From SAR324 cluster bacterium (GTDB lineage Bacteria > SAR324 > NAC60-12): a stretch of DNA of 64,000 nt. The stretch spans positions 15,589-79,588 of the forward strand of contig JACNJW010000040.1 of the NCBI GenBank assembly GCA_014382365.1, given 5' to 3'. A program made the position numbers and the translations under genes. This document shows, piece by piece, positions 5,301 through 41,837 of this stretch. Position 1 is the stretch's first letter. Each line of letters opens with the position of its first letter. The notes beneath the pieces are model-generated. The model had not been told where the DNA came from, searched no databases, and worked only from the letters and a program-made list of their open reading frames with translations.

Positions 5301-8300
5301 ATGTGCATTAAATCCATATGCACCGGTTTCTGTGAATCCGCTACAATTATCTTCACAATCAACTCCGCCGGCAGTACTGATAGTGCCTACTGTTCCAGTG
5401 GTGGTGGATAATGTAATATAAGAAATTTTGCTGTTATCAGTCATACTCAAATTAGGTTCACCATCAATTTCAAGCAACGCGATTTCGTTTCCATCAACTG
5501 AAGTCAACAGTGTATTATCAAGCATCATCAAAGCATTTCCGCTGAATTTTGATGTTTGAGCATGTGCTAGTTTAAGCGTACCACCGGTGCTGGTCAGTAT
5601 TCCATCACTAATGCTTAAAGCACTCAACAGTATCAAGTCCGCATCAGCAGTAGAAATTCCTTCTAAACTTGAATCGATGATGACAGCATTTTCCACTGTA
5701 AGGTCACTGGTTGCACTTCCCAATGTCAAAGTGAAATCATTCAGATTTAAATTTACAAAATTTGAGGCTTCATCACTGGTCAAGGTACTGCTGGCTGCAA
5801 GTTTCAAATCAGTTTGTGAAATAGTAAGAACTCCACTCGATTTGATAAAATCAGCACCTAGAACCCAGGTGCTTCCACTAAGATCCAATTTACCTGTTCC
5901 TGAAAGCTGACCTCCACCCAATGTAGAAATGTCTCCTCCTGTAGATGTTATGCCACCATCACTGATGTTCAGTGCAGCAAGGAAACTTATGTCGGCATCT
6001 CCTGAAATCAACCACTCGTCGGCATTGTCGAAAGTCATTGCAGATGTTACAGACAAATCTGTACTTGCTGAACCTAGAGTCAATGTCAAATCATTCAGTT
6101 GCAGCTGGTTAAAAGCAAGTGCTGTATCACTGCTTAAAGCTATACTATTCAACAAATTCAGCATTGCAGATGAACCGTCAAAATTACCACCGCTTTTCGT
6201 ATAATCTGCACTGAGACTGAGAGTACTTGCTCCTAAGTCAAATTCAAATGTTCCGGACTGAGTACCTCCATTGCGGAAAAGCAGTGTGCCTCCAGTTGAG
6301 CTTAATTTCCCATCTGCAAGTGTCACATTACCCTCAACAGTCAAATCTGCATCTCCTGTCTTCAATAATCCATTTGCTGTTGTTAAAGCCAAGTTTCCAC
6401 TGAGAGTTAAATCACTTGATTCCGAACCCAGTGTGAGCGTATTTGCACCTAACTCAATTGTATTAACGGAAAGTAAGTTGTTGTTGGTTATTTTTAAACT
6501 ACTGAGTACTGTTAAAGATGAATCTGAGGTTTCCAGAGTTCCACCTGTTTTAAACAAATCTGCATTTAAATTCAGCAAACTATTGCTGATATTCAACAAC
6601 CCTCCAGTTTGAGATACTCCACCATTAAATATTAAGGTGCCCCCTGTTGAGTCAAGCCCTCCGTTAGCTACACTCAGTAATCCTTGAAGCTTCAAATCTG
6701 CTGAATTTGTACGTATTTGCTCATCTGCAGAATCCAATGTTGTTGGATCACTAACCGTCAAATCAGTTGTCTCAGAGCCGAGTGTAAGTGTTTTATCATT
6801 CAAAGTAAGTGTTTTCACTGAAAGAGATGTATTGCTCGTAAACGTAAGTCTCTCAGTTAATTCCAGCGTTGTTCCAGCTTCAGTTGCAGTCAGAGTTCCG
6901 GCTGATTTAAGAAAATCTGCACCCAGTTTAAATGTACTGTCTGTCAGATCCAGACTTCCTCCGGATTGCTCTCCACCTTTTGCAAATGAAATAATTCCTT
7001 TAGTTGAAGAAATAAGTCCATCCTGCATGACAAAACCACCCTGCAGGTTTAAATCTGCAGGACCTGTTACGAGTTGTGCATTTGAATCATCAAACGTAAT
7101 GTTATCTGAAACAGTCAAATCACTACTTTCAGTCAGCAAAGTTAGGAGCTTGTTATTTAATACAAGCGATTGTGTCTCAACTGCTGTATCGCTTGAATAA
7201 TTTGTATTTTCACTCAAACTCCAGGAAACATTGTCGAGTGACATTGCACCACCTGTTTTTGTCAAAGCCCCTTGAGTTTCCCATTGATTATTCTCAAATA
7301 CCAGAGTAGCACCTGCATCAACTTTTATTTGCGCATTATTCCATTTGCTACTGGAGGACTGAAATGTTACAGATTCTTGTGCATCCAGCAAATTGTTTTC
7401 AGAATAATCAAAATTTCCGCTGACTTTTGTTCCTGCAGAATTTAATACAAATTGACTTTCATCTTCAAATGTTACAGTTCCGCCAAAAGTCAACTGACCG
7501 CTGTCTCCGGATACTGTCAGCACTTTTTGGCTGGGTACTGAAAAAGAGTTCGGCGTATTTAGCTCAGTCAATACAGACAATTCAAGATTTATATTACCTT
7601 TTTGATCAAGTTGCTCTACTACTATTTTTGCAGAGCTTTGCAATATACTGTCGTCTCCTTCACAGCTAGAATCTGCACTCACATCAACAACCAACACTTT
7701 GTCGTTTTCTACAAGGCCATCACTTGGATCAATGCCAAGATGTGAGAGTGTAGTTGCATCATCTGCAAGTTTTAGAATTCCGCCATCCTTATTCAGGCGG
7801 ATTGAATTATTATCCCAACTCGAAAAACGTCCTCCACCCTGCAAGGCGAGACTCAGGTCATTAACTTCGAGTGGGATACTACCCTCATAAGTCAAAACTT
7901 TATCCGGTGCAATAAAAATTGTGGAATTAGTAAGATGTTGAATTTTGCCGTTAATTGTAACGTTTTCAGTGACGCACATTACTCCGCCGTTTAAATTAAT
8001 GTTGGCAGTCATTGACCTGTTGAAATTCATGGTCCCGCTTACATTAAAAGTCAGTCCTCCTCCAACATCGAAAACGGTGCTGCCAGTCATTACTATTTGA
8101 TCTTTAAAATTGATATCTATCTCGTTCTCAACCTTCACATTTACATCCTGCAGCGTTAAAATGACGTCGTTCGGCTGAGTCACTTCTGTTACCAAGAGCC
8201 AGCCTCCGTTGCCGTCACCCATTATTTTTGCAGTAGAATAGACGTTTAAATTTTCAACATTCAGTTCAAACGACTCGTTAGTGAAGCTCAAACCCACGTC

Positions 8301-11300
8301 TGCCAATAAGTTCAGATTGGTAATTTTTGCATTAGCACTTTCAACACGTATTCCCTTTCCAGCCGTACTGTTTGCAGTTACTTCAATGAGAGCGATTGTA
8401 ATGTCATCTGCAAAAACCAGCAAACTGTCTGTACTACTGAGCAGAATCGAATTCGAATTCAATAAAGTTCCGCTTCCCAGCAATGTCAGTTGAAAAGTTG
8501 TGATGTCAATACTGAGACCTGAGTACTCCAGATTCACTCCCTGTGCTACATCTACAGAAGAATTACCGGAAATTAGAATGTCTGAAGCAATTTTAGTTTT
8601 GTAGTCCACATCCAGTAAACTTCCTTCTATCAATTCAAGTTTGCCATTTATCATGTTGTGATACGGCGTACCGGAACTGATAGTAGGAGCACTGAATTGA
8701 AGTGTGCCTGCCAGTTTCAGCGTGTCAGTTATACTGAGAGTACCGCCGTCTGAACCAAGAATTTCCAGTTTGTGGTCCTGCGGGATTTCAAATGTTTTTG
8801 TCAGACTTAATTGTTTGCCGTTGGCCAAATCCATGCTTGCATTGTCGGCAAGTGAAAGTTGAGTTGAAATCGTTACGTTTTCATCTACATCCAACAGACC
8901 ATTGTTGAAAATCAGTGTGCCGTTATTAAGCGTATTGTTGGTTGCATTCAGTTTCAGTGTCCCAGAAAGTGTCAGCTTATCGCTGATGTTAAGAATTCCA
9001 CCACCGGAACCTTGTAATTCCAACACCTTATTCATTGGAACTTCTACGCTGTCTGTCAGCGTTAAACTAATTGAGTTAGCAATATCTATTCTTGTTGATT
9101 TTACTGGCGATATTGTATTGATGGTAACGTTTTGTATCACATCAATAGATCCTTCAATCAAGTCTTCCGCAACAGCAACTTTTTCAACTTTCGCTATTCC
9201 ATCAAGTTTCAAGACACTTGCTGCATTATTAAGAGACAGCTCAGTTGAATTATTGAAACTCCCTCCTCCTGACATTGTCAAAGTGAGTGCACCGATTTCT
9301 AAATCACTTCCGAAATAACTCAGTATTTTGTCCGCGGAAACATCTATCGTGGAATTTAATAGATGTGTAATGTCTGAAGAAACTGTTGTGTTTTCAGAAC
9401 TTGTCAATGTACCTCCGTTCAGGGCCAGAGTTCCGTTATCTAGAGAAGAATCAGGTGCGTTAAACTTAATTTCACCTGACAAAGTCAACGTATCGCTTAT
9501 GCCCAGCGAGCCACTGCCGGAACCAATCAGTTCCATGGTTGTTGCTTCCGGAATCTCAAAAGTATTCTCTAAGGTCAAGCGGACTCCAGAAGCAATGTCC
9601 AGACGGGAGGAAACGTTTTGCGTTAAAGTCTCGATAAGTGAGTCACCAGTCACACTCAATTTTCCAGTTGACAATTCTTCAGGAAAAGAGACCCTGGAGA
9701 CTTCAACTCCATTCAACACCAGAACGCTGAGAGGGTCATCAAGAGCAATATCTTTTATGTTTTCGATCTTACCTTCTCCGGATAGAGTTAAGGCTAATGC
9801 GCCCACATTTGGAGAGTCTCCGGTATATTTCAGAGTTTTGTCAGCAAACACACTAATCGCTGAATCCATCAAATGAGTAATCTTAGAGTTGATAATTGCA
9901 TTCTCAGAAATTGACAGAGTTCCACCGTTGAGCGCTAATGTACCGTCAGACAAAGTATCTGGAGCACTGAATTTAAGTATTCCGGAAAGAGTCAGTTGAT
10001 CTCCCAAAACCAGGGTTCCATTATCAGCACCAACAAGCTCCATTGATTTATTTTGTGGTACTTCAAACAAATTCTGCACAGTCAGCGTGGTATCATTTGA
10101 GATATCAAAGCGTGAAGAACCTGTGTGCGACAGAGTCTGAATGAGAGTGTCATTGTCAACACTGAGCATTCCACTGGTTAATTCTCCGGTCACTGCAACT
10201 TTTGAAATTTGATTGATTCCTTTCAAGACCAATTGACTCGATGCATCATTCAAAGTGATTGCATTTTCATTTGTTATGGTTCCGCTTCCGGAAAGTGTCA
10301 GTGTAAAGGCACCTATTTTAGGTGTGTTTCCGGAATATGTTAATGTTTTGTCTGCAGCCACTGCAATGCTGCTGCTGCTCAACTGAGTTATTGTTGCTGC
10401 GATATTTGTATTCTCTAACACATCTAGCAGACCACCGTTAAGTCCAAGAACTCCGCTGGTGAGCGAATAACCGGCTGAACTTATTTTAAGATTTCCGGAA
10501 AGTTTAAGTGCATCAGGCAAATATATTGTCCTTCCTGCTCCGGAACCCAATAGTTCCATGAATTTTCCTGCTGGAATTTCAAACGGATTTGTCAGAGTCA
10601 GGTTATTTCCTTCATCAAGCTCAATACTGAACGATGCAGATTGTGTCAGTGAATCGATTGTAGAGTTTTCAGCAACATTTATCACCCCATCACTCAACTC
10701 AGTTTTAACAGCAACTTTTGAAATTTTGATTCCATCCAACTGGAGTTTGCTTTGAGCATGATTGAGACTGAGATTATTTGTATTATTGAAAGTCCCGCCG
10801 CCTGAAAATATTAATTTAAAGGCTTCAAGATTAAATTCCTGACCTGTGTAATTTATCGATTTACCCGTAGCAATTTCAATTGTAGCATTTGCACTATGAA
10901 CCATATTTGATTCGATTGTCAGATTTTCATCTACATCAAATTTTCCCCCACTCAGGAAAACCGTGCCGCCGCTTAAGACTCCGGATACGGGAAACTTAAG
11001 CGTGCCGCTGAGAGTCAAATTATCACCAATAGCAAGGGTTCCACCTGCACCGACAAACTGCATGACCTTTGTTTGAGGGATTTCAAAACCATTGGAAATA
11101 CTCAGGGTTTTTCCTGATAAAATATCTACAACTGATGATCCTGAATGCAGCAGGTTTTGGACTCCTGCATTATTTACAACCTCAAGTTTTCCCGTAGTGA
11201 GTGTAAGCGGAACCGAAACATTTGCGACAGCAGATATTCCATCCAACTTCAGGATGCTTACCGGATCATCTAAAACCAGCTGATCCTGATTGGCAAAAGT

Positions 11301-14300
11301 ACCTCCGCCGGAAAGAGTCAAAGTTTTTGCTCCAATTTTAAAATCACCACCGGAATGCGTTAAGGTTGCACCGGAAGAAATATTAACTGTAGAATCTGCA
11401 TTGTGAGTAATTATGGCTGAGATTGCAACGTCATCATTCACGCTTAATTTACCACCGTTGAGAACAATTGTCCCGTTGTCAAGTGTCTGTGGGACTGCAA
11501 ATTCCATGGTTCCGGAAACAGTTAGTGTATCCTCCAATTCCAGCACACCATTACTACCGGTTAAATTCATCTTTCTCTCAGCCGGCACTGACAAATCACC
11601 CTGAAGAGTCAAACGTTTACCGGAGGCAATCTCAAACGTTGATGCTGCAGGATGTGTGATTGAAGAGGAGATTGTTGAATCTTTTTTGACAGAAACAATT
11701 CCACTATCAAAGGCCAGTGTTCCGCCTTCAAGCCTACTCTCTTCATCCATTTGCAGTGTCCCGTTCAGAGTAAGTGTATTTTCCAGCTTCAAGCTGCCAC
11801 CAGAACCATTGAGCAGCATTGTTTTGTTACTGCTCACACTGAAATCTTCCTTGATGCTTAGGGTCTTTCCGGATGAAATATTAATTATCGATTCACCTGT
11901 ATGCGTGAGACTTTGAATTAACGTATTTTCTGAAACATTCAATTTGCCCGTCTGCAGTGACACAGGAAAAGAAACTTTGCTGACTTCTGTAATTCCAGCC
12001 AGGTTCAAAACACTGGCTACGTCATTGAATTTCAAATCTGCGCTATTGGCGAATTTACCTCCGCCGGATAGTGTAAGTGCAAACCCGCCGATATCCATTG
12101 CGCTGCCGGAATAAGTCAGAACTTTCCCGCTGGAGACATTAACTTCGGAACTAGCTTTGTGCAGCAATGTCGATAAAATGCCTGCATTTTCAACAACCTC
12201 TAGAGTACCTCCGCTGAGTGACAACGTACCGTCCTTGACAGTATCGGCTGCACTCACTTTCAGAGTGCCTTTAAGCGTCAACTTTTCATTCAAACTCAAA
12301 GTTCCGCCTCCGGATCCAGATAATTCCAGCGACTTCGCTTGTGGAATTTCTAAAGCATTTTTTAGCATCAATGTCTTTGCATTGGCAATCTCAATCATTG
12401 AAGAACCGGAATGAGACAAGGATTCTATAATCGAGTCCTGAACAATTTCCAGTTTGCCTGATGTTAAAACTGCTGAGACTGAAACTTTATTAACTTTTGC
12501 AATTCCATTAAATTTCAAAGAACTTGAAGGATCATTGAGTGTTATATTTGTTGTATTCGCAAAATTTCCACTGCCGGAAAGTATCAGCGTTTGTGCTCCA
12601 AGATTAAATTCATTTCCGGAATAATTTAGTGTTTTTCCGTCTGCCACTACAATGCTGGAATCCGCTTGCTGAGCCAGATCAGAGATAAAGTTTATGTCTT
12701 CATAAACTTGCAATGTCCCACCATTGAGAGTCACGGTTCCGCCAGACAAAGTCGTGTTTGCTATTGGTAAATTAAGCGTACCGGAAAGTGTCATGTTATC
12801 ACCCAGCGTCAGAGTCCCGGCTGCACCTGAAATCTTCAGTTCTTTTTCAGTCGGAACTTCAAAAGCCTCAGTAATACTCAATGTTTTGCCACTCACATAA
12901 TTTATTTCTGAAAATCCTGTGTGTGCTAAATTGTTGATGACACCACTACCAGTCATTTTTAAAACTGGTGCATTTAAGTTGTCTCCTGAGCTTGTTTTCA
13001 CGTGGCTGACAGTAGAGGCTCCTGCACCGGAAAACTCAAGTCCTCCATCGGCGTTATTTAAGGTTAATGGGTTGCTGCCGTCAGTGTTTAACAGCAGAGA
13101 CCCGCCGCCGGATATGGACAATATGCTGTCATTTAAGTTAAGTGCCGCTCCTTCATATGTTAAGCTGGCTCCATCAACTATCTTAAGATTGGATGACGCA
13201 TTTAATGAGATCGAAGAAGAACTGCTGATTGTCATATCACCGTCAATCCGTAAAGTTCCACCGTTCAAGACAATATTACCTTCAAGCCAACCGTCAATAC
13301 AGAACTCACCGCCTGTATTTATACTTACACCGCCGGGAAGTTTTAATTGTCCTTTAGGTTCAACCGGTAGAGATTGTGGACAGGAAATTCCGACAGAAAT
13401 AAGTTCATCAACCTTGAGTTTTGTTGTACTGCCCAATGTCAGCATTGGTTGAACATTTTCCGCAATCGTTACATTTGCTATCAACTGTTCTGCATTGGTG
13501 GTCAAAGTGGAGTCCCTAAGCAAATGGAAATTAGTAGTTACATCTGTCTGCAATACTCCTCCAGTTAAATTGAAATCTCCCCCTAAATTCAACAAAACCC
13601 CTTTTGCGTCAACCGTCAAACTTCCCGAAGTAAGTATCACATCTCCATTTAGAGTGAAGTTTTCATTTAGTTCCAGCATTCCTGAGCCTGACAATTCCAT
13701 ACCCTGTGTTGGTACAGTCAGGGACTCGGTGATACTAAAAGTTTTTTCGGAAGCAACAGAAAGTCTAAGCTTTTCTGTCAAATTCAAATTGCTCAGAGTA
13801 GCATCTGAAATCACGTCCAACCCTTTGTTTGAGCCACTGGCTGCTGAAACTGAGACATAACCGACAACCACATTATCCAGCACCAAATGGCTGTTTGAGT
13901 TATTCAGGCTCAAGGCAGAGGCAGCAGTATTAATGAAATTTCCGCCACCCTGAATATTCAGTTTTGAAGTGCTGAGATCAACGGTTGTTCCCGAGTAAGT
14001 CAGGGTTTGTGATGAATTGATATTTATTGTTGAATCTGCACTTTGTACCAGATTATCAACTAGAACTGTACTTTGTTCTATCGACAAATTACCGCCGTTC
14101 AAGGCAATATCACCCGAAATTTGCTGACCTTGCCCAACCAACGCACTGCCGGGTTCCAGGTTTAATCCTCCTGCAAAATCAAAAGATCCACCACCGTTAC
14201 TGAGTTTTTGTGTGTTGTCGACTGTTACAGGACTCGTTACTCGAACAGTAACATTTTCTGTTCCCAGACTTAATTCAGCTCCGCCTGTCAAAGCAAGAGT

Positions 14301-17300: not shown

Positions 17301-20300
17301 ATCCGCCTGATTTGTAGTTAGTTTTGAACCTGAATTGTCCAGCTTCAGAATAGACTGAATCGTCAGGTCAGTGGTCTCTGAACCAAGCGTAAGTTCGAAG
17401 TTGTTCAGATCCAGTCCACCAATTATCATTGCAGATGAAGTGGAGATATTTGTATCTGCATTTAGTTTCAATGCAGTATTGCTGTCAGTCTGTATTTTAC
17501 TGAAATCACTATAAGTACCACCGAATTCAAGGGTGCCGCCTGTCAAAGTAATTTTTGAGGAGCCGACACTAAAGGCAGTGTCTTTCAATCGCAATGTACT
17601 ACTGTTTGACATTGCAACATCTGCCGCAAGAGTCAAAGTCGAGTTAAACAGTTTCAATTCACCCCCGCTAATTTGTGCTGCGGAATTGAAAGCAACTGAG
17701 CCTCCTGTCATAAGTATACCGGCATCGTCCAAAGCCACACTTCCATTGAATATGAGTGCTCCTGCACTCGATTCGAGTTTCCCGTTATTGTTTAGACTAA
17801 GCGCATCATTAAGCGTCATACTGCCGGATTGAGTGTTGATGGATTCGTCGGATCCGACTGTAAGCAGATTACTCAACGTTAGATGGGTTGAAGAAGTATT
17901 CAGGGTCAGCCCTTGTCCGTTCAAGTCCAGCGTCGGAATAGTAAATACAGCATTGCTGGAAAAACTTGATGCGGTTTGGAGTTCGAGTTTGGAGGAATTG
18001 TTTGTGTTTAGGGTGCCGTCGGCAACATCCAGAGTTCCAGACAATTTCACTGTGCTGCCTGAAAAATCAAAAACAGCACCGTTTCCAAATACTGCGCCCT
18101 GCTGTAGTGTCAAAATCCCTGAGGTGGAACTCAGTTTCCCGTCTGCCAGTGCCAGTGCAGACTGAAGCGTGATGTCTGCTCCTCCGGTTAACATTTGTGA
18201 AGCAGTGGTATCAAAAGTTAATGCTCCAGTAACTGTCATGTCACTGGTCTCTGAAGCGAGGGAAAGTGCTTTATTTTGCAAATCGATACTGCCCAGAGTA
18301 AACGGAGAACCACGTGAGAGAGTTGCATCCGCGGAAAGTAGTAGAGCTGTGTTTGTACCGGTGATGACTCCATCCAGCGACAAACCTGTCCCTAATTCCA
18401 ATTTAACATTCGTTCCGGATAAATCGACGCTGCTGCCGTTTAACTGCAGAGTTGGATCATTTCCGCTGGTTGTCAGTTTGTCGCCAATTGTTAAATCTCC
18501 ACCCAAAACCAGTGTCGCGCTTTCAAGCGTTAATTCATCTACTGAACCACCGTCTGCAAAATCCAGGGTTCCGTTGCTGACCTTAAGTTCACCGTCTTGA
18601 ACATTTATCGAGTTTTGAAACTTCAAACTTCCGTTACCTCTCAATGACAATATCTTTTCGTTCAACGAAAAATCACCGCCCTGCTGAATTATTAAAGTAG
18701 AGTTTGGAGCGACGTTCATTTCTGAATCTGCCGAAAGACTTAGCGTGCCAGTCAAATTCTTATCATTGGCAACACTGAATTTCCCTCCGGCAAGTTCCAT
18801 TCCGCCTGTATATTCTCCACTTCCCGAAATTTTAAGTTCGCTATTATTGTTTAATTTTATCTGACCGTCGATCGTTTTATTTGCTGCGATGTCAAGAATG
18901 GTGGTTGCGGTCATTTCGAAGTTACCCAAAGTCACGGACTCTGTAACCTGAACTCCTTTTCCGGAATTTGCAACAGATGTTGACTTCACATTTCCAACTG
19001 TGTTGATTCCAGCCAAGACAAGCAGACTATCCGCATGATCCAGTTCAAGCACATTTGAATTGTTGAAAATCCCTCCGCCGCTCATAGTCAGTTTGTTTGC
19101 ACCAAGCTTCAAGGATGCTCCGGAATAATTCAGTGTTTTTCCGGAAACGACTTCAATGTTAGCATCATCAAATATGCCTATATCACCCGATATTGTCGGA
19201 GAACCACTTGCTTTTAGCGTGCAACCTTCCAGTCTGATTGCTCCGGAAATTATTCCATTTCCTGTTAAATCCAGCACACTTTCCTCAACAACCAATACTA
19301 TTGGGCTGTTTACAGCATTACTGAACGTACCTGCGCCTCCAATCGTCAGGGTGTAGTCCTGAACAGTCAGGTTCCCTCCTGAATAGCTCAGCGTTGTACC
19401 TGCATCCGGAATTAAAACTGTGACATTGTCTGCAACATTTATTGTTCCGGAAACCATGAGACTCGTTCCTGCTTCCAGCGTTCCTTCAAGATTCAGTGTG
19501 CTGCCAAAAGTGCCTGCACCGCTGAGTTTGAGACTAGTGTTTTGCGCAACATCTGTTGATCCGGAGAGAGTTTTTCCGGCTGCAATATTCAATTCTGTAT
19601 CTGCCGCAATATTCAGCTTACTGATTGTTCCGGAATCATCTATCAGAATACCTTTGCCCTCATTACTCGCCGTAGAAACTTTCGCAGACTGTAATGTACC
19701 GGTTCCATTCAGTTTTAGTAGACCGTCCGAGTTATTTAAAACGATGCCGGACGCATTTTCTGGAAAAGCAACAATTCCGGCGCCTTCAAGCGTCAACTGA
19801 TAACTTCCTGTCTTTATCTCACCGGAACCAAAAGTAAGAGTTTTTCCGGAGTCCACATCAATTGAGATGTCTCCGGATTGTGTCAATGCACCTGAAATTG
19901 TTAGCGATTCATTTGCATCCAGCGTTCCGCCGCTCATCAAAACATTTGCTGCTAAAGTACCGCTATTGCTAAACTGCAATGTTCCTCCGGTATTCACGAC
20001 AATGTTTCCGGAGAGGCTTTTGCTTGAAGTAATAGAAACAGGAAGGAGATTACTGACTGTAAGACTTGAAACCGTTGAGTTATTTTCTATTTCCATTCCA
20101 AGACTGTCTGCGGAAGAAATTACATTTGCGATACTGATTCCGGAAAGTTTTAATTTGCCGTTTGTGCCAAGATTGAGCGCATTCGTGTTCTGCAGTTGTC
20201 CAATACCTGAAAATGAAAGCTCATTTCCAAGCATAATTTCTGCGCCAGAATAATTTAGAATGCTTCCGCTGTTGAATTTAATTGCTGAATCTGCTGTCAG

Positions 20301-23300
20301 CGTAAGATTGGATGCAAGTGCGAAAGTTTGGGAAACATTTTCACCAAGTTCTAAAACACCACCGTTGAGAGAAATGTCGCCTATTGTTAAATTAACAGGA
20401 TCTTTCCACGCAAATTCTCCATTTGGATCAAGCTTCAGTCCGCCATTCAAGGCAACTGCAGAATTTTCATCCCAAATAATTCTCTCATTTGCATTGTCCA
20501 GCACAAGCTCATTTGCGACTGTAAACGAAGATACAGAATTTAGAGTCAGTATTTTATTTTCCAGACGCAATTCATTGACAGCAAACGTGGCATCACTGGT
20601 GAGACTGAGGTTACTCAGCAACTCTAAATCTGTGGCGCTGAGTGTTAAGGTACCTCCACTTTTAGTAAAATTATCTGCTACTGCCAGCGTACTGTCCTGT
20701 ATTACTAATGTTCCTCCATTGACAGCACCACCTTTTTCAAAAGTTATTTTGCCTCCACTTGAAGTCAAAGTTGTTCCGGATGTGAGATCTGCAATCCCTC
20801 CAGTGAAAGTCAGATCTGCCAGGTCCGTTGCCATTGTTCCTGCTGGAGTACCTGTGTTTGTTCCACTATTACTTGAAGCACTGAGGTCAAGTGTCAAATC
20901 TGTTGTTTCTGAGGCAAGTGTAAAAGTGAAACCTTCTAAATTCAACTCGCCTAAAATGAAACCCTGACTGCGATTCACTGTTGTATCTTCACCAAGTTTG
21001 AATGTTGTCTGGTTATTGGTCAGTACATTATCTAGAGTTACGTTGCCGCCAAGTTTCAGCGTGCCTCCGGAGAGATCAAGATTGGACCCGAGGTTCCAGC
21101 TTGTGGTACTGTTTGTTTTGAGGGTTCCGGAAACCGCATAGTCAGTTCCAATCTTCAATTCAGCACCCGCCGCATTGATTTCTCCAGCATTGGTTCCGCC
21201 CTGCTGAAATTCGAGCTTTCCCCCTGTGCCGGTAATGACACTTGCATCAATAGACGCTCCGGTTGAAATATCCGCCCTGCCAACAAAAACAAGATCGGCA
21301 CCCTGAGTGCTTAGTGTACCGGATGCAAGTGTAAAAGCATTTCCGAGTGTAAGGTCAGAGGTTACGGAGGCTAGTTTAAAATTAAAACCATTGGTATCTA
21401 AAGTTGCTGCTTCAACTGCCACCGTGCTTGCAAGCTCTGCATTGGCAGTCAGTGAAAGATTGGTATTTGTACTTGTCCAAGAATCCGCAACATTTAAATT
21501 TCCACCAAGTTGAATCGTTGTTCCGGAAGTGCTGAAAGTTGCTCCGCTGACTGCAGTAGCACCGCCGGGCAGACTTAAGGTTCCGCCTTCGATATTAATT
21601 ATTCCGGTAGTATCTGCGCTCAGACTTGAGGCAGAAAGAGTTCCGCCACTGGATGAAAGCGTTCCGGAGCTCACTGTAATTCCACCGTTGAGTGACAAAT
21701 CAGCCGCGCCGCTTATAATCTGTTCTGTGGCTGCGTCAAGTGTCACTGCCTGCGAAACACTCAGTCCCGCCATTGCGTCATCCAGCGTCAAGGCAAATTC
21801 TTCCAGTTCAAGTGTGCCGATTGACAAGGTGTCGCTGTCATTGAGCGTCGTATCTCCTGACAAACGAAGTATGCTTGTATTATCCGGAGTCACTCCGCTT
21901 AAATCCTGTGTACCCTCAATCTCCAGATTACTGCCTGATAATGTCAACGCGTTTGAGTTTGTAGTAAAAGTTGTGTTCTTGGTCTTCAGTGTTGAAGAGG
22001 AAATTGTCAACGGACTTTGCAGAACCAACGTTGACTCAGGAAGTGAGAGAGTTGAACCTTCAGCAAGACTGCCTCCGGAGTTGAGGGTGATTGTGCCTCC
22101 GCTTGAATTGAGTTTCGCAAGATTGCTCAAGTTCAACGCTCCGGCAAGTGACAAACTTCCTGCACCGGTTTCCAAAGTGATGCCGGACAAACTAAGCGTT
22201 GTATTAGCGTCAGTTAAGTTCAGCTGAGTTGTTGCTGAACCAAGAGTCAGTACCTGACCCTCCAAATTAACACTACCGAAAGAAACAGCATTACTCGATG
22301 AAAGCGTGGTTGCAGACTGCAGTTTCAGAATTGAAGTATTACTGCTGCTGAATGTTCCGGCGTTCAGATCAAGAGTCTGGCTGACACTCAAGGTACTGTC
22401 TGTTACATCAAGTATTCCTGCTTCGCCCAGAGTCAGTCCGCCTGCAAATGAAAGCGTTCCGCCTGTGGAAGTAATTGAGCCTGAATCAAGTTGCAAAGCG
22501 CTGGAAAGCGTCAGATTAGCAGATTTGGTTTCAATTGCTGAGCCGGTCGCAGTCATTGCCAGAGGGTTCGGCAGAGTCAGGCCTGCACTGTCTTCTGCAA
22601 GTGTAAGTTTGTTTCCACTTAATTCCAGTGTACCGAAACTCAGTGGGGTATTGCTCGTTACCTCTGTATCACCACTTAATTTAAAAGTTGTATTTGTGCC
22701 GGTTGTAAAATCATTTAAGTTGATTGAACCCCCGCTAGACTCAAGGGTTCCGGAACTAAGATCAAGCGTACCCTGCCAACCACTCCAGTTCGAACCGGAG
22801 TTTGCCGTTAAAGTTCCTGTTATGTTTAAGGCTCCTCCAAGTTTAAGCTCAGAGTCGCTCATGTCTAACTTACCGGTGGCTCCGACAGTTCCACCTTCGA
22901 TCAGATTCAAAATACCGCCGCCTTGTACAAATTCGCCGTTCAGAGTCAAACCATCCATTAGGCTGATATTACCTGTGCCGGATGCTAATTTGCCACCCTC
23001 AGCAATACTCAAACTATCATTGAATGACAGCTCACTCGATCCACTGTTGAACGTTTCATAGCTGCCGATATTCTGTGCACCGTCAATTGTCATAGAGGTC
23101 ACACTGCTGTCCAGTGTCAGTTCGTTGCCGTTCAAATCGAAATCTGGCCATGTTGCATTTCCACTATGAGAAAGAGTGGTGGCTCCTTCCAGCTTCACTG
23201 TGGAAGTTGAATCGTAATCAACAACACTGTTGTTGACCAGTGATAGCGATCCTGACATTTTGAAAGACGCATCAGGAAAAGACAAATTACTACTGTCAAA

Positions 23301-26300
23301 TGCTCCTCCATCTTCTAATATTAATCCGGCACTACCTACATCCAGTAAGCTACCGTTTTTGAATGTTGGAGATTTTTGAAATGTAAGATTTCCATTAGAG
23401 TAACCAAAATATGCAGCGTCAAATTGTGATGCTTTTGAAACCGTAAGGTTCATATCACTGATAGTTAAAAAGCCGCCGCTGGTTCCACCAGACTGCCAAA
23501 ATATTAATTCGCCAATTATACTTGTGCCGGAATCTGTACGTGAAATATCTGCTGAAGTGTTTATTTGAAGTGTTGTGTCTGCGTCCGTTGTGAAACCGTC
23601 CAAACTGTGAGTTCCAGCAAGTACAAGCTTTCCGCCTGAAAGATCAAGAGTATTGGCTGCCAGGCTGATATTTGCACCACTGTTTAAATTCAACATACCT
23701 GCAACGGAAAAATCTCCTATTAGATTAAATCCAGCTGAGTTTCCGACTTCAAGTTCTCCATTCGCTCCTACATTACCCCCGGAAAGCACCAATGTTCCGC
23801 CTTTGACTTCTATTTTACTTTGAGTTAAAGCCAGACTTCCAAATGAAACAATACTGGTTGAAATACCGTTTAGAACTAAATCGAAGCCTTTTGGATCAAA
23901 AGTATCAAAACCTACAGCAGAATCGAGTATGAGACTTACATCGCTCTGTAACTCTAAAGCTGTACCGCTTAGTGTTAAGGTACCTCCGCTTTTAGTAAAA
24001 TTATCTGCTACTGCCAGCGTACTGTCCTGTATTACTAATGTTCCTCCATTGACAGCACCACCTTTTTCAAAAGTTATTTTGCCTCCACTTGAAGTCAAAG
24101 TTGTTCCGGATGTGAGATCTGCAATCCCTCCAGTGAAAGTCAGATCTGCCAGGTCCGTTGCCATTGTTCCTGCTGGAGTACCTGTGTTTGTTCCACTATT
24201 ACTTGAAGCACTGAGGTCAAGTGTCAAATCTGTTGTTTCTGAGGCAAGTGTAAAAGTGAAACCTTCTAAATTCAACTCGCCTAAAATGAAACCCTGACTG
24301 CGATTCACTGTTGTATCTTCACCAAGTTTGAATGTTGTCTGGTTATTGGTCAGTACATTATCTAGAGTTACGTTGCCGCCAAGTTTCAGCGTGCCTCCGG
24401 AGAGATCAAGATTGGACCCGAGGTTCCAGCTTGTGGTACTGTTTGTTTTGAGGGTTCCGGAAACCGCATAGTCAGTTCCAATCTTCAATTCAGCACCCGC
24501 CGCATTGATTTCTCCAGCATTGGTTCCGCCCTGCTGAAATTCGAGCTTTCCCCCTGTGCCGGTAATGACACTTGCATCAATAGACGCTCCGGTTGAAATA
24601 TCCGCCCTGCCAACAAAAACAAGATCGGCACCCTGAGTGCTTAGTGTACCGGATGCAAGTGTAAAAGCATTTCCGAGTGTAAGGTCAGAGGTTACGGAGG
24701 CTAGTTTAAAATTAAAACCATTGGTATCTAAAGTTGCTGCTTCAACTGCCACCGTGCTTGCAAGCTCTGCATTGGCAGTCAGTGAAAGATTGGTATTTGT
24801 ACTTGTCCAAGAATCCGCAACATTTAAATTTCCACCAAGTTGAATCGTTGTTCCGGAAGTGCTGAAAGTTGCTCCGCTGACTGCAGTAGCACCGCCGGGC
24901 AGACTTAAGGTTCCGCCTTCGATATTAATTATTCCGGTAGTATCTGCGCTCAGACTTGAGGCAGAAAGAGTTCCGCCACTGGATGAAAGCGTTCCGGAGC
25001 TCACTGTAATTCCACCGTTGAGTGACAAATCAGCCGCGCCGCTTATAATCTGTTCTGTGGCTGCGTCAAGTGTCACTGCCTGCGAAACACTCAGTCCCGC
25101 CATTGCGTCATCCAGCGTCAAGGCAAATTCTTCCAGTTCAAGTGTGCCGATTGACAAGGTGTCGCTGTCATTGAGCGTCGTATCTCCTGACAAACGAAGT
25201 ATGCTTGTATTATCCGGAGTCACTCCGCTTAAATCCTGTGTACCCTCAATCTCCAGATTACTGCCTGATAATGTCAACGCGTTTGAGTTTGTAGTAAAAG
25301 TTGTGTTCTTGGTCTTCAGTGTTGAAGAGGAAATTGTCAACGGACTTTGCAGAACCAACGTTGACTCAGGAAGTGAGAGAGTTGAACCTTCAGCAAGACT
25401 GCCTCCGGAGTTGAGGGTGATTGTGCCTCCGCTTGAATTGAGTTTCGCAAGATTGCTCAAGTTCAACGCTCCGGCAAGTGACAAACTTCCTGCACCGGTT
25501 TCCAAAGTGATGCCGGACAAACTAAGCGTTGTATTAGCGTCAGTTAAGTTCAGCTGAGTTGTTGCTGAACCAAGAGTCAGTACCTGACCCTCCAAATTAA
25601 CACTACCGAAAGAAACAGCATTACTCGATGAAAGCGTGGTTGCAGACTGCAGTTTCAGAATTGAAGTATTACTGCTGCTGAATGTTCCGGCGTTCAGATC
25701 AAGAGTCTGGCTGACACTCAAGGTACTGTCTGTTACATCAAGTATTCCTGCTTCGCCCAGAGTCAGTCCGCCTGCAAATGAAAGCGTTCCGCCTGTGGAA
25801 GTAATTGAGCCTGAATCAAGTTGCAAAGCGCTGGAAAGCGTCAGATTAGCAGATTTGGTTTCAATTGCTGAGCCGGTCGCAGTCATTGCCAGAGGGTTCG
25901 GCAGAGTCAGGCCTGCACTGTCTTCTGCAAGTGTAAGTTTGTTTCCACTTAATTCCAGTGTACCGAAACTCAGTGGGGTATTGCTCGTTACCTCTGTATC
26001 ACCACTTAATTTAAAAGTTGTATTTGTGCCGGTTGTAAAATCATTTAAGTTGATTGAACCCCCGCTAGACTCAAGGGTTCCGGAACTAAGATCAAGCGTA
26101 CCCTGCCAACCACTCCAGTTCGAACCGGAGTTTGCCGTTAAAGTTCCTGTTATGTTTAAGGCTCCTCCAAGTTTAAGCTCAGAGTCGCTCATGTCTAACT
26201 TACCGGTGGCTCCGACAGTTCCACCTTCGATCAGATTCAGAATACCGCCGCCCTGCACAAGCTCTCCATTCAGCGTCAAGGCTCCACTCAGTTGAACTGA

Positions 26301-29300
26301 ACCATTGTCTGAAGTAAGTAAACCTCCACTTTCGATTATTAAGGAATTGTTCAGTGAAGTATCTATTTGGCCCAAATTCAACGAGTCACCATTGTCTATA
26401 TTTAATGTTGAATTGAACATCACTTCTGTTACATTACTTCCCAGTGTTAAGGCATTTCCGTTCAGGTCCAAGGTGGTGAAATCAAGACGCCCATTACTTG
26501 AGAGGGTTGTATCTCCATTCAATACTACAGAACTATTATTCAAACCATACCAACTGTCAGCCAGAGAAACTGTACCCTTTGGTTTAAAAACTGAATTCTC
26601 TAAATACAAATTACCATTGCTGAAAGTTAGTCCATCCTGCAAAATCAACTCACCGTCAAGCACTCGAATGGAAGCATTATCTGCTGAAACAGTTTTTTGT
26701 AATGTGAGCGTACCTTTATTGAAATTGATATTTCCTTGTTCGATTTGGACATCTCCGACAATGTTGAGGCTCATATTATCAACCTCTAAATAAGTACCAT
26801 TATTGCTGGAGTTGTCGTTTTCATATTGTACAGAGAGCATTTCCAGATTTCCGATGGTGTTACTACCGTAGTCGGTCCTAAAAATATGTCCGTAAGAATT
26901 AATTTGGAGCGTAGTTGCTGAAGAGGTGGTGATGCCATCCAGATTATGTTTGCTGCTCAATTCCAGACGACCGCCGGAAAGGTCTATTAGATTATCCGAA
27001 GGAGTAACATTTGCATCATGATCCAGAACCAAAGTTCCAGCAACCGCCACATTGCCCTGCAAATTCAGATTGCCGTTCCAGCCAATTTTAATTTTTCCGT
27101 TTTGGGTGACATTTCCTCCCGAAAGATTGAGTGCACCGTTTTGTATTTCTACTGTTCCATCATCAAGCGTCAAATTTCCGTTGAAACTCACATCTCCCTG
27201 ATAACTATGGATGGTCGCATTATCTTTCAGTGTTACATCACCGGAGAGAGTTAGATTTGCATCGTCAGTTTGGATACCTATGTAATGAGAGTTATTGTCC
27301 AGGTGTGTCTCAGTTAGAATATCGTTTTGATACTCATACCATTTAACAAAACCACTCGACAAAGCGGCAGAACTAGGTTGAAGCAAAATGTCTCCACCCA
27401 GAGTTAGAGTGGATGCATTATCATGCATCAGCAATCCCCAACCGTTAGGTTCATAGCTGTCAAATGTGACTGCAGATCCCGGCTCAAAAATAGTATTAGC
27501 ATTTAATCTAAGTGTGCTGGCAGAGGTAGTAAACGTACCGCCATCGTAATTCCCAAACGGTCCACCAAGTTCTAAAATACTGTTGCTCAAATCCAATTCA
27601 CTGTTTGCCCCTAAACCTCCACCTTTTTCCAGCTTAAGAGTTCCCCCTCCCATCTCCAGTTTGCCGTGTTCAAGGTAGAAAGATCGTGTCATAGTTACGT
27701 CAACCCCTTGAGCAATCAAAGCACCCACATTACTATTATTGAGAGTACCATTATCACCATAATTTGGAGCCCAAAAGCTACCTGTTGTTAAACTGGTAAT
27801 TGCTGAATTCAAAGTTAAAGTGTTGCCTTTCGCGCTTATTCCTTTAAACAAAAGGACACCGGTTTTTGTGATACCTGCGTCGCCAACCAAACCTAAGTAT
27901 GTCTCACTGTCTGTAACCACATCTGTAAAATCAAATTCCGGCCCTCCTCCAAGATCAATACCGTCTGCTAGTGTTAAAGTGTTACCATTGGTTTTCAAAA
28001 GAGAAGAGGCTCCTGTAAATTCCATCCATGAGACTGTGAGATTTGTCCTTAAATCTAAGGTTGTGTTTTCCAGCAACATTCCTGTTTCATTATCCGCGAA
28101 AGTAGTCCCTGCTGATCCTGCTTCATAAGTTACAGTTCCACCACTGGACATTATTCCTCCTGCCAGCACATTGACTGGACCATTCAGAGTCAAATCTGCA
28201 AGCCCTGTATCAAGTCCATTCTCTCCGGGATAATTAATGGTGAGTCCTTCATTAATAGTCAAATCAGTAGTTTCCGAACCCAGCTTCAACCAATGCTGGC
28301 CCAGCTCGACAGTCTTTAGTGATATTGGATTAGCACTGCTGAGTGTTGTATCAGCAGTTAGTTTAATTGTGCTTTTGTCGTCAAAAGCCATTCCGTCAAG
28401 GGACAGCGTTCCGCTCGTCTCCAAAACCCCTCCGGATGCCGCAGTTCCACCAGAAAAATCAAGAATATTGTTGTTTAGTGTAATTGTCGAAGTGTCTTTC
28501 AATTTCAAAGTTCCGGCAACACTTAAACCTGCATTCAGCACCAAGGAACCACTACTGATTTCCAGCTTGGCATCCGAAGCAATTGTGCTGACATTTCCCA
28601 AAGAAATACTACCGTCATCTACTTCAATTTCTCCTGCTGACAATGTTAAGCCACCGGATAAAGTCAGATCCGCGCTACCGACTTTGATTTTTTCGTTTTC
28701 ATTACTCAGGCTTAAAATATTACTTATAGTTAAATCAGTTGATGCCGATCCCAAAGTCAAATCATTTCCATTCAAGGCCAGTGATTGAAAACTAAGCGGA
28801 CTGTAACTAAATATACTAACATCATTAAGGAGTTTAAATTCTGTAGTCGATGAGGCCATGTTGCCGCTCAGTATATTGCTCAGATGACTGCTGAGATTTA
28901 CTTTTGAATCCGAGAGATCCATATTTCCATCTTCCAGCGTTACTCCTCCTGAAAGCGTCAGTTCAACATTTTGCAGACTTACTGTTCCTTGATTGTGCAG
29001 CAAACCGCCGACTGTAACTTGCGGGTTATCCGGAAAGTCATCATCGAGATTTTTCAATGCAACATCCGCTCTCGAATCCAGATAGAGATGCTTAACTTCA
29101 GTCTCAGTCAGTGCACGGTTATATAGGCGAAATTCGTCCAGGTTTCCACCAAAATAATTACAAAAGCATTCACCCTGTTCACCAATGTAAAGGGGTGCTG
29201 ACGTTCCACCGTTATCTATGGCAGTGATATTACTATAGTAGGGACCGTCTTCAACTCCATTAAGATAAAAATAAATGCGCAACTGTTCGCCGATATCCTC

Positions 29301-30925: not shown

Positions 30926-32608
30926 TTATTCAACCACAGAGTTTTGTAATGAACCAGTCCATTGCATCAAGTTTGAAGACAGATTATCTCCAACTGAAAC
31001 GTTGTCTGACCTCACAATTGAATTATTTTCAACCTGAATAAAAAATACTGCCTGCGGATTATTTGCTTCAGTGGTTGCAGGATTACTGTCATTTTTAAAA
31101 TTATAAGGACCATAAGTTATATTGTCGGTTATTCCAGGACCAGTCAAAACTAGTTTAAAATTCTGTACATCTGTCTCGCTGACATCTTCTACATAAACCA
31201 GATAAGTTCCATTGCCGACTTTTTGACTGTCTGTAGCCCAGACTTGAACCTCAGTATCAGAGGAACTGCTGCCGTCCTGCAACTGAACTACATCTCCAGT
31301 TTCAGAATATTTTTTGTTGGCTGCATTACTGTAAACCCAGTAACGCGAACCCCTGGTAGTATTATCAAAACTTCCATTTGTAGTTTCTTCATTGTATGTC
31401 CAATCCGGAAAATAGTATGAGTGCAGATCCGGATCCAGTCCATCTGTCCAACTGAGTGTAAAACACATGGTACTGTTGTCAACACAGGCATCATAGTTAA
31501 CTGTGCCAATTGTCTGTGTTTTTGAAACTTCATTAACCGTAAGAATCACTTGAAGTTCATTTGAACCGTGAACTAAAGGCAGGGATGAGGCTGTTGTAAA
31601 TTGAGTTGTGTAAGTCACATTATCCGAACCTTCAGTATTAGACCAACTGGAAAGAGCAATTGGTGGTGTAACATCTACAAGTGTACTGGCTCCAACCCGT
31701 TTTACCTGCATTAAGGATAATATCTGGGTTACATTGTCTTTTTGGGCAATCGGTACATTTAACACAAGTGTCCCGCTTGCAGTCGCATATGCAGATGTTC
31801 CCACTTGAGAAATGCTCATACTTTCAAAACTCAACCAATCAATATCTACATAATTCGGTGTTAATTTTACATCCAGAGTCTCTGTGGAACTGCTGACCAG
31901 AAACGTCTGATTTAAGGGAATAAATCCCTGCAAATCAACATCATAACTATATGAGTTATAAACAACATTTGAAAACACTATCGACTTACTGGCATTGTCC
32001 TCAGAACTAATCGTGAATGAACTGTTGTCAATGAGAATACCTGCAGTAGAATTAAGCTTGGCAGTACCTGTACTTCCGGGCAGCATTCCGGCACTGCTTG
32101 TGCTGCTGATTTTGAATGTAACAGTTGAATATTTTGTAGTCCAAAATTCAACAGCAACTGTTTTGGAGATAGTTTCCGAATCAATCGTAAAAATACCTGA
32201 TTCACCATATCCTCCAGGTGTAATAGTACCTGCACCCAATTCGTTCAAAGCATAAGTTTCACTAAAAAAGTAGAGGCAGAGTTTAATTTTTGTATCCAGC
32301 GGCACAACAAATTGAGCATCATAAGTATTAATGTCAACCAACGACCTGCTGTATTCAACTCCGGAATTTGCAGTAGTAGACTCACATTGAACTGCCGGTA
32401 TCAAAACTGCTAAAATTGTTTTGGCATCGCTGCTGGTCAAACTTTCTGCATACTGCGAACGACTCATTTTTCTATCTGATACGTCATCCATCCGAATCTG
32501 CAACGAAGCATAGCCGTTCGTCTCTGTTTCTACTTCTGCACAGGACACTGCAAGTACAAAAAGCAACAGCATAATAACAAAGATGTTAAGGTTGGTAGTC
32601 CGCATCAT
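30926..32608 (-). CDS. Secreted (probable lipo)protein, 560 aa, hypothetical. The signal peptide plus lipobox-like segment is LAVSC-AEVETE. A C-terminal PPC-like beta-sandwich module is present (DPDLHSYYFPDW...GNGTYLVYVEDVSETDVQNFKLVLTG). It lies immediately upstream of the giant gene.
   Basis: ORF 30926..32608 (-). N-terminal MMRTTNLNIFVIMLLLFVLAVSCAEV fits the Prosite lipobox pattern. The PPC-like motifs were recognised by eye. There is no enzymatic signature. Confidence 0.65.
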   Translation of the reverse strand: MMRTTNLNIFVIMLLLFVLAVSCAEVETETNGYASLQIRMDDVSDRKMSRSQYAESLTSSDAKTILAVLIPAVQCESTTANSGVEYSRSLVDINTYDAQFVVPLDTKIKLCLYFFSETYALNELGAGTITPGGYGESGIFTIDSETISKTVAVEFWTTKYSTVTFKISSTSSAGMLPGSTGTAKLNSTAGILIDNSSFTISSEDNASKSIVFSNVVYNSYSYDVDLQGFIPLNQTFLVSSSTETLDVKLTPNYVDIDWLSFESMSISQVGTSAYATASGTLVLNVPIAQKDNVTQILSLMQVKRVGASTLVDVTPPIALSSWSNTEGSDNVTYTTQFTTASSLPLVHGSNELQVILTVNEVSKTQTIGTVNYDACVDNSTMCFTLSWTDGLDPDLHSYYFPDWTYNEETTNGSFDNTTRGSRYWVYSNAANKKYSETGDVVQLQDGSSSSDTEVQVWATDSQKVGNGTYLVYVEDVSETDVQNFKLVLTGPGITDNITYGPYNFKNDSNPATTEANNPQAVFFIQVENNSIVRSDNVSVGDNLSSNLMQWTGSLQNSVVE

Positions 32609-39140: not shown

Positions 39141-39485
39141 GCAATATTTTGGTGGTGAAAATATTTGTTTTCAGTATATTTTCAGCTAATTTAATCTCTC
39201 ATTAACCCTCTTTATTACGCTTTGACGGAAGATTTGTCAAGCATAATTACATGCCATTGTTAGTAAAATTTGTCAGGCAGATCAATTTTTTTACAGATTT
39301 TAATTATATCCCTTTCATCTGCCAACAATAATATTATTTTTTTATTTTCTGTTAGATATTCGTTGCAAATTAAAGACATCTCAGTTAGTCTTGGTCTTTA
39401 GTCATCTTGCATAATTTGCCAATCTGCGTAAAAGATTGTATTCCTCAAATAAAAAATGTCTGGAACAATCTTAAAAGGTACTCAC
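39141..39485. promoter_or_regulatory. AT-rich 345-bp divergent intergenic region. It lies between the minus-strand motor/adhesin array (starting at 39140) and the plus-strand pal-like/tolQ/tolR/lpxB/tldD array. Divergent promoters are likely. It contains a 9-bp direct repeat ATTTGTCAR (39232-39240 and 39268-39276).
   Basis: The position between divergently oriented first genes, the AT richness and a direct repeat seen by eye. No consensus sigma70 boxes were confidently identified. Confidence 0.3.
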
Positions 39486-40685: not shown

Positions 40686-40693
40686 ATACATAA

Positions 40694-41374
40694 ATGGATT
40701 TTTTATCTCTCCCGTTTACTACTGATTTCAGTAGTATTGCCTTTAGTGTTCTTGCAGTGCTTTTTGCCTGTTCTGTGATTGTCTGGATCACGTTGTTCAT
40801 GAAGTTTTTCAGCCTTATCCGGGCAAAGTTTCTTCAGTCACGTGCCCTAAAACTACTGGAAAACACAAAACGTGTTGATGAACTACGCTTGCGGTTCGCA
40901 AAGATGCCCAATAATCCGCTCCAGGAAATGTTCACACTTGGAGATCGGGAACTTAAGAGGTTCCTTAAATCAAATCCTGCATCAGATTATGGCCACCGCC
41001 GGGAATTAATGGACCGACTGGAAAGGATGCTGGAAGCTCGAATTTTGCTGGCAGAGAAAGATCTAAATGCCGGCCAGGCTCTGCTGGCAACCATCGCTGT
41101 CACATCTCCGTTTATTGGTTTATTTGGCACTGTGATTGGTGTAATTAACACTTTCATGAGTATTTCTGAGTTCAATTCAGTTGATCTGTCTGTGATCAGT
41201 CCAGGCATTGCTGAGGCGCTTGTAGCTACTGCGGCCGGTTTGTTTGCGGCAATTCCTGCTACTTTAGGCTACAACCTCTTTCGTGCAACGATCCGGGGAA
41301 TGACTGAGACAATGGATTATTTTGCACTGCAACTTCTGCATCACCTTCAACAGCATTTGCTGCCAAAAAAATGA
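40694..41374 (+). CDS. TolQ/ExbB-family proton channel (MotA/TolQ/ExbB family), 226 aa.
   Basis: It has three TM helices with the signature TIAVTSPFIGLFGTVIGVINTF. It is adjacent to an ExbD/TolR-like gene and a Pal-like gene. Confidence 0.85.
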   Translation: MDFLSLPFTTDFSSIAFSVLAVLFACSVIVWITLFMKFFSLIRAKFLQSRALKLLENTKRVDELRLRFAKMPNNPLQEMFTLGDRELKRFLKSNPASDYGHRRELMDRLERMLEARILLAEKDLNAGQALLATIAVTSPFIGLFGTVIGVINTFMSISEFNSVDLSVISPGIAEALVATAAGLFAAIPATLGYNLFRATIRGMTETMDYFALQLLHHLQQHLLPKK

Positions 41375-41793: not shown

Positions 41794-41837
41794 TTCAACA
41801 CCTGCCATAGTCTAAAACCACCTTCCTGAAATACTCG

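Follow-up and report, generated by a model that had tools for sequence, protein, structure and literature searches.

The 64,000-nucleotide (nt) stretch of contig JACNJW010000040.1 from a SAR324 cluster bacterium (hereafter the window, with positions counted from its first letter) contains, within one giant gene, two long segments that are nearly the same in sequence. The question raised by this locus is how two parts of a single gene came to be so alike, and how far their identity could be a product of assembly. The giant open reading frame (ORF), located at 2301-30740 on the minus strand, is uninterrupted, encodes a protein of 9479 amino acids (aa) and carries both segments, which we designated R. 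Copy B, the first in the protein, occupies 23960-26239 (minus strand, aa 1501-2261), and copy A occupies 20630-22909 (minus strand, aa 2611-3371). We consider it likely that an ancient tandem duplication gave rise to two units, each composed of a spacer (S) and R, and that the R parts were homogenised by gene conversion.

The two copies, 2280 nt each, were aligned at an offset of 3330 nt and differ at four positions, 20634, 20635, 20640 and 20658, all within 29 nt of one block edge. The longest perfect run is 2251 nt and pairs 20659-22909, the perfect core of copy A, with 23989-26239, the perfect core of copy B. An earlier note on this sequence had reported block identity with one mismatch, at 20658; the near-identity was confirmed, with four mismatches in place of one and nothing like numerous substitutions over the 2280 nt. 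Outside 20550-23250, gapless nucleotide identity at the same offset is approximately 25%, which is the random level, and the R pair is the only direct repeat family of at least 40 nt in the giant gene region (2000-31000). The identity of the R copies is far beyond chance, and the repeat is real. The offset equals 1110 codons, and both copies lie in the frame of the giant ORF. The pair thus presents near-identical paralogous copies within one genome, as repeats homogenised by gene conversion do. An insertion sequence or other mobile element was rejected as the source of R: the host ORF is uninterrupted, the plus-strand ORFs across R are antisense only, with no Pfam match and no coding potential, and no meaningful inverted repeats or other mobile-element features were found at R.

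The spacers have a different history. S0 (26240-27289, minus strand, aa 1151-1500) precedes copy B and together with it forms the first unit, S1 (22910-23959, minus strand, aa 2261-2610) lies between the R copies, and S2 (19580-20629, minus strand, aa 3371-3720) lies downstream of copy A. S0 and S1 share 41% aa identity with a 4-aa register shift (alignment score 545, compared to 56 +/- 11 for shuffles), and chunked BLASTP self-comparison of the giant protein paired aa 1184-1480 with aa 2298-2590 at 39% identity; the C-terminal ~300 aa of S1 correspond to an old paralogue of S0. Between S1 and S2, aa identity is 27% (score 115), no higher than between any two segments of the rod, and closer resemblance is limited to the ~30 residues that adjoin the block. 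The diverged 3.33-kb periodicity previously proposed for the flanks was therefore retained for 22910-23959 and 26240-27289 and abandoned for 19580-20629 and 22910-23959, and what had been described as a longer array comprises two units only. At fourfold-degenerate sites in conserved residues, S0 and S1 match at 22 of 69 (32%; random expectation from composition, 0.275), whereas the R copies match at 457 of 458 fourfold-degenerate sites. The paralogous sequence adjacent to R is thus far more diverged than R, synonymous sites included. The synonymous sites of S0 and S1 are saturated, and S0 and S1 are genuine but old homologues. Since these two spacers are specifically paralogous and both lie directly N-terminal of R, an old S+R duplication is indicated, and the old structure is two tandem S+R units of ~1110 aa rather than a longer array.

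The edges of the identical block were examined by codon-level alignment and mismatch position. At the N-terminal edge (22910-22954, minus strand; partner 26240-26284), both units encode the conserved peptide LTLNGE(F/L)VQGGGI, and their codons differ synonymously as far as 22910/26240. Identity jumps to 100% from 22909 on, while the preceding 45 nt differ at synonymous positions. This sharp edge has the appearance of a conversion-tract endpoint and, because it falls within the conserved LTLNGExVQGGGI motif, a change from relaxed to strong protein constraint cannot explain it. The C-terminal edge (20600-20658, minus strand; partner 23930-23988) tapers through the mismatches at 20658, 20640, 20635 and 20634 and then decays progressively. 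Position 20658 is polymorphic between samples, and one independently assembled scaffold (L002, described below) has the copy-B allele there.

In the proposed mechanism, a rod unit of ~1,110 aa (S, ~320 aa; R, ~760 aa; and a further ~30 aa) would have been duplicated in tandem and in frame in the distant past. Homologous recombination of the RecA type would then repeatedly copy one R onto the other by intragenic gene conversion, with occasional unequal crossing-over, so that the S parts drift apart while the R parts stay near-identical. The current 2.28-kb block would be the latest conversion tract, sharp at its N-terminal end and tapering at its C-terminal end. Because sequences as diverged as S0 and S1 lack the homology needed to start conversion, R must have stayed similar throughout, which agrees with what is seen in relatives. 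A simple fresh tandem duplication is excluded, since the identity spans 2280 of the 3330 nt of the period and the spacers differ; the identical segments do not abut, and the 1050-nt spacer differs from both of its neighbouring flanks. The event had originally been described as a very recent duplication or gene conversion. The contrast in fourfold-degenerate sites and the sharp edge agree with conversion, and simple tandem duplication was set aside. We infer that recombination is the mechanism, that homogenisation continues in this genome and that fibre length varies as a result.

The homologues of R that were identified are marine metagenome fragments from Tara and SAR324 metagenome-assembled genomes (MAGs), some of which had been assigned to other phyla, and almost all of them lie on contigs of 1.2-4.4 kb. 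The profile search used a trimmed alignment (A2), the 11-sequence alignment (A1) being too diverged for search patterns; among metagenome contigs it returned only fragments of 1.2-4.2 kb, none with a second copy. An exact 32-mer from mid-R had no match in Joint Genome Institute metagenome contigs, and a contig search with the N-terminal 1,100 aa of the giant protein found no relative. The most informative relative was L012, from an 862-kb contig of the SAR324 MAG FRAM18_bin343, which represents another species. L012 and aa 912-5423 of the window protein are collinear. Its orthologue contains three R-type copies (c1-c3) at spacings of ~3358 and ~4362 nt. Identity between c2 and c3 is 98.7-100% across ~2.47 kb; compared with either of them, c1 is mosaic, its blocks of 86-94% identity alternating with blocks of 98-100%. 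Mosaic tracts, a mark of gene conversion, are thus present in L012, and the window itself shows a single tract. The identical tract in L012 begins ~300 aa more N-terminal than that in the window, which indicates that tract boundaries are lineage-specific.

Identities across genomes were computed over a 591-nt core of R. Over this core, copies A and B of the window are 100% identical, the L012 copies are 98.3-99.0% identical among themselves, L012 and its close relative L009 share 91%, and the window shares 67-75% with all others. This grouping of R copies by genome indicates concerted evolution. Additional lineages show the order R-spacer-R as well, in the fragments L008/P0002, L029/P0013 and P0003/P0004, and P0003 and P0004 have stretches of 96-98% identity followed by divergence. 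The end of the L008 contig coincides exactly with the start of the next R, where only ~9 nt are shared with the start of the first R, a match that is suggestive but does not amount to evidence. Homologue contigs of 3332 and 3334 nt were considered as cyclic R+S units and rejected, as they have no terminal overlap and their lengths are coincidental. Other SAR324 lineages also keep 2-3 near-identical copies of R, and their tracts have other boundaries, which suggests that concerted evolution is a continuing process and not a single chance event. The homogenisation behaviour recurs across SAR324 lineages, and the locus provides a clean natural case of partial-unit concerted evolution in one giant ORF, with two-thirds of the unit homogenised and one-third saturated.

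The locus was then compared with independent assemblies. The exact 560-aa protein encoded next to the giant gene (30926-32608) is present on 15 contigs from independent samples, and seven loci were retrieved; apart from the repeat, their identity to the window is 99.95-100%. L004, a SPAdes contig, stops 55 nt into copy B (26185), and L005-L007, Logan contigs built with k=31, stop 30 nt into it (26210). The scaffolds L001 and L002 contain copy B and S1 whole, followed by 55 nt of copy A and then 100 N. L001 restarts after the gap at 20713, exactly 55 nt inside the perfect run, and L002 restarts at 20695; with the copy-B allele at 20658, the perfect run of L002 begins at 20641. The scaffold L003 shows the reverse, with copy A whole and copy B replaced by 100 N. 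The breaks in L001-L003 therefore lie exactly 55 nt inside each sample's own perfect run, and the repeat boundaries defined by the assemblers match those of the window. L001-L003 contain all four junctions (S0|R, R|S1, S1|R and R|S2), and with these in independent data, at least two R copies are real. A spurious antisense ORF within R, used to seek contigs that cover the interior, matched two N-gapped scaffolds only.

The warning that this repeat poses an assembly risk was borne out, in that all seven short-read assemblies break 55 or 30 nt inside the block or show 100 N for one copy. The locus is an assembly trap at which short-read assemblies of this SAR324 population break or gap exactly at R, and gene length, copy number and within-repeat variants are not trustworthy here without long reads. 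The statement that the true copy number is uncertain held insofar as short reads cannot count identical units; a number below two is contradicted by the four junctions.

L001 (sample ERZ24794642) differs from the window solely in two tight clusters of substitutions. The first comprises 10 substitutions in 84 nt (25377-25460; L001 17149-17232) inside copy B, and the second comprises 5 substitutions in 13 nt (20278-20290; L001 20282-20290) downstream of copy A. No intragenic donor for either cluster was found in the window or in L001. The first cluster (LNLS>LNMS, LNSGG>LSSGG and LAEG>LASG) introduces residues found in homologues of other lineages and falls where P0003 and P0004 differ; this patch may stem from micro-recombination or may be hypervariable.

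Several observations weigh against an old duplication homogenised by conversion. The interior of R is collapsed in every short-read assembly, and the 100% identity in the window could have arisen by traversing a collapsed unitig twice. At position 22149/25479 the two window copies have one base, and copy B of L002 and copy A of L003 have a different one, a variant that could be a hidden difference between the copies or a strain single-nucleotide polymorphism. A lineage-specific duplication would give an equal grouping of R copies by genome. In L012, the spacers before c2 and c3 are both S1-like and 99% identical to each other, such that part of the triplication may be a fresh lineage-specific duplication by unequal crossing-over. 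L012 is also riddled with single-base indels and frame changes, and the identities among its copies are limited by assembly error; the indels, including those between otherwise identical copies, are probably long-read consensus errors, the alternative being a pseudogene. L009, which is close to L012, shows a single R, although it is a short-read MAG and possibly collapsed. Finally, the dependence on RecA and length polymorphism within the population are parts of the reading that we infer.

The alternative that survives best is that the two copies are real but the exact 100% identity of their interior was made by assembly, the true copies differing at a few sites. We regard this as possible but doubtful. 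The failure of all seven independent short-read assemblies to resolve the interior is consistent with it, as is the placement of the four window mismatches, all within 29 nt of unique flank, where k-mers can phase the copies. The variant at 22149/25479 appears in whichever copy L002 or L003 assembled and in neither copy of the window, and the copies in the long-contig relative L012 differ by 0.3-1.7%. However, the k=55 scaffolds gave just Ns for the second copy and break exactly k nt inside, which points to very few differences, if any, and the window may itself be a long-read assembly. Identity made by assembly would in any case alter the percentage and not the biology.

The suggestion that R was copied once, and very recently, into an existing rod by copy-and-paste or segmental duplication, with no history of homogenisation, appears improbable. 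It would account for the single, essentially substitution-free tract visible in this genome, and for the finding that no other repeat of the giant gene is homogenised. A plain tandem duplication, however, would make all 3330 nt identical, where only 2280 nt are, and the specific paralogy of S0 and S1 (41% versus 27%) directly N-terminal of R implies an old S+R duplication. Conversion that began between copies already as diverged as S0 and S1 would lack initiating homology, and multiple near-identical R copies with mosaic tracts are kept in other lineages.

We consider it quite unlikely that more than two copies (for example, R-S1-R-S1-R) were collapsed to two in the window: identical units are not countable by short reads, and L012 has three, but no data require further copies, and the scaffolds place one S1 between two R positions. 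False duplication, in which an assembler doubled a single R, is a generic hazard with 2.3-kb perfect repeats and is very improbable here, as S1 (22910-23959) adjoins R at either end and is a genuine paralogue of S0, in frame and of beta-solenoid type, the junctions S0|R and R|S2 also occur in independent assemblies of different samples (none of the defining junctions was absent from L001-L003), and R-spacer-R order is found in relatives, including on the 862-kb contig.

If the R copies are homogenised by conversion after an old S+R duplication, crossing-over between them would lengthen or shorten the protein by 1,110 residues without a change of frame, which would correspond to ~25 nm of rod if each coil has ~3 strands and rises by 4.8 A. 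The repeat had been put forward as a substrate for recombinational expansion or contraction. This was supported in part: relatives carry one, two or three copies, in keeping with such changes over evolutionary time, and length may also vary within a population. Phase variation, also proposed, was rejected: the period is in frame (3330 = 3 x 1110), a crossover stays in frame and alters length with no on/off switching, and no simple-sequence repeat is involved. These features hint that the rod length of a surface fibre in an abundant deep-ocean bacterium could be changed in large in-frame steps. A broader proposal, that SAR324 giant-fibre genes throughout the lineage keep 2-3 near-identical modules of 2.3-2.5 kb as a homogenised length cassette and vary fibre length by RecA recombination, is speculative and, in our view, unlikely to hold as stated. 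Were it true, the cassette would act in steps of ~1,110 aa (~25 nm) as a contingency-type locus in a free-living pelagic bacterium, with a possible tie to the adjoining conserved MotA/MotB-OmpA/porin/FecR-like cluster.

It is well established that recombination maintains identical in-frame repeats in the genes of surface proteins and giant adhesins. Large identical tandem repeats occur in alpha C/Rib of group B streptococci, in Aap/SasG (G5-E) and in Bap/Esp, and the ice-binding adhesin of Marinomonas primoryensis contains ~120 identical 104-aa repeats. The SAR324 locus resembles alpha C/Rib-type repeats in having in-frame, nucleotide-identical units within a secreted, rod-like repetitive protein, with identity maintained by recombination, copy number that varies among relatives, and short-read assemblies that are wrecked by the repeat. 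In contrast to the 0.2-0.4 kb units of those adhesins, the SAR324 unit is a 2.28-kb identical block in a 3.33-kb period; the window has two copies only, with two-thirds of the unit homogenised and one-third at 41% aa identity. R is predicted to be an unclassified beta-solenoid rather than a string of immunoglobulin-like beads, and the host is a free-living pelagic bacterium and not a pathogen. Gene conversion among dispersed or tandem paralogues of one chromosome is long established, as in tufA/tufB of Salmonella, rRNA operons and babA/babB of Helicobacter. As in tufA/tufB-type conversion, the R pair forms a sharp-edged tract of identity within an older paralogy, inside which synonymous differences are reset to zero. 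Unlike that case, both partners lie within one ORF and the tract is longer than typical bacterial ones. Homogenisation of R copies by recombination is an ordinary phenomenon for giant repetitive genes; what is particular to the SAR324 case is the large unit and its partial homogenisation, with no new mechanism.

Repeat-rich regions fragment giant genes in short-read assemblies, which then need curation (West-Roberts et al., bioRxiv 10.1101/2023.11.21.568195). The confinement of nearly all R homologues to short contigs fits this repeat-driven fragmentation, and the SAR324 locus displays it at exact k-mer resolution. The same study describes Omnitrophota proteins of >30,000 aa, which have other domains, and mentions neither SAR324 nor MotA-type neighbours. 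Our literature search on SAR324 giant genes found nothing specific.

The giant protein comprises, in order, a signal peptide at its N-terminus, a LamG-like domain at aa 390-550 (Pfam Laminin_G_3, E=1e-24), a predicted beta-solenoid rod, a PKD domain at ~aa 8611-8697 (Pfam, K319L-like PKD, E=5e-12) and a C-terminal region. Between the LamG-like and PKD domains, R included, no Pfam family was detected. The rod is long, and L, S, T, G and N are abundant in the protein. The copy B region (aa 1482-2300) was modelled with AlphaFold2 from 11 sequences, with a mean predicted local distance difference test (pLDDT) score of 91.7; the model consists of a regular run of beta strands of 3-5 residues and nothing else (118 strands in 819 aa). 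The R segment is thus confidently predicted to form a beta-solenoid rod. Foldseek comparison of the model with the PDB gave no significant match (best E=0.22, template modelling (TM) score 0.3 or less), and its top, non-significant neighbours were beta-helices of autotransporter and two-partner secretion (TPS) proteins (Ag43, Hbp, VacA p55, EtpA and Fap2). With the passengers of these proteins the rod shares a predicted long solenoid of short beta strands. It differs from autotransporter and TPS adhesins in lacking a significant Pfam or fold match and in its gene neighbourhood; Pfam found LamG and PKD only, with no autotransporter beta-barrel or TPS domain. Membership of the autotransporter/TPS beta-helix adhesin family was rejected, there being no significant sequence or fold match and no translocator domain. 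The best explanation is that the giant protein is a secreted, adhesin-like surface-fibre protein of an uncultured marine SAR324 bacterium. The LpxB encoded in the window is matched at 100% in public assemblies, and the next closest LpxB sequences, at 73-76% identity, carry the name SAR324 cluster bacterium wherever they are named.

A second repeat region of the giant gene, at ~8540-13040 (aa ~5900-7400), consists of tandem modules of ~170 aa at offsets of 170, 340, 592, 760 and 932 aa. These modules share 36-47% aa identity, with no homogenisation at the nucleotide level. In L012, seven repeats of ~39 aa (7687-8455; consensus GVTYGNGTFVAVGNSGTILTS.DG..WT.RTSGTTN, beta-propeller-like) are inserted between the second and third R, and the window has no such insertion. 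At the equivalent place, P0004 and P0013 have an unrelated insert of ~250 aa, P0014 has an F5/8 type C domain and P0011 has a LamG domain. Module borders thus seem to be places where the rod tolerates inserted domains. Fragments of SAR324-type giant genes (P0001, P0005, P0012, P0021, P0032, L010 and L013) also sit in MAGs labelled as Marinimicrobia, Anaerolineales, Dehalococcoidia, Pseudomonadales, Chloroflexi and Phycisphaerae; these labels are most likely binning errors with short, repeat-derived contigs.

The giant gene lies within a conserved cluster on the minus strand (218-39140), which is also found in L009 (658-13232). The cluster starts with genes for a 543-aa protein with a weak MgtE_N match, a MotA/ExbB-type channel (288 aa) and a MotB_plug+OmpA protein (523 aa), and continues with those for a porin-like protein (416 aa), a FecR-like protein (341 aa), the 560-aa protein, the giant 9479-aa fibre and a 722-aa protein. 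In L009, a short-read SAR324 MAG, the order of the MotB/OmpA, porin-like, FecR-like, ~560-aa and giant genes is as in the window. The presence of a proton-channel stator beside a giant surface rod might reflect an undescribed surface machine. The final 86 nt of the giant gene (2301-2386) are shared with the 722-aa ORF (218-2386, listed with a TTG start), the true start of which is probably further downstream than listed. Gene calls on L001 and L026 placed a second, divergent set of OmpA-like, MotA_ExbB and ExbD genes (TolQR- or ExbBD-like) at 39456-41800 on the plus strand, directly upstream of lpxB.

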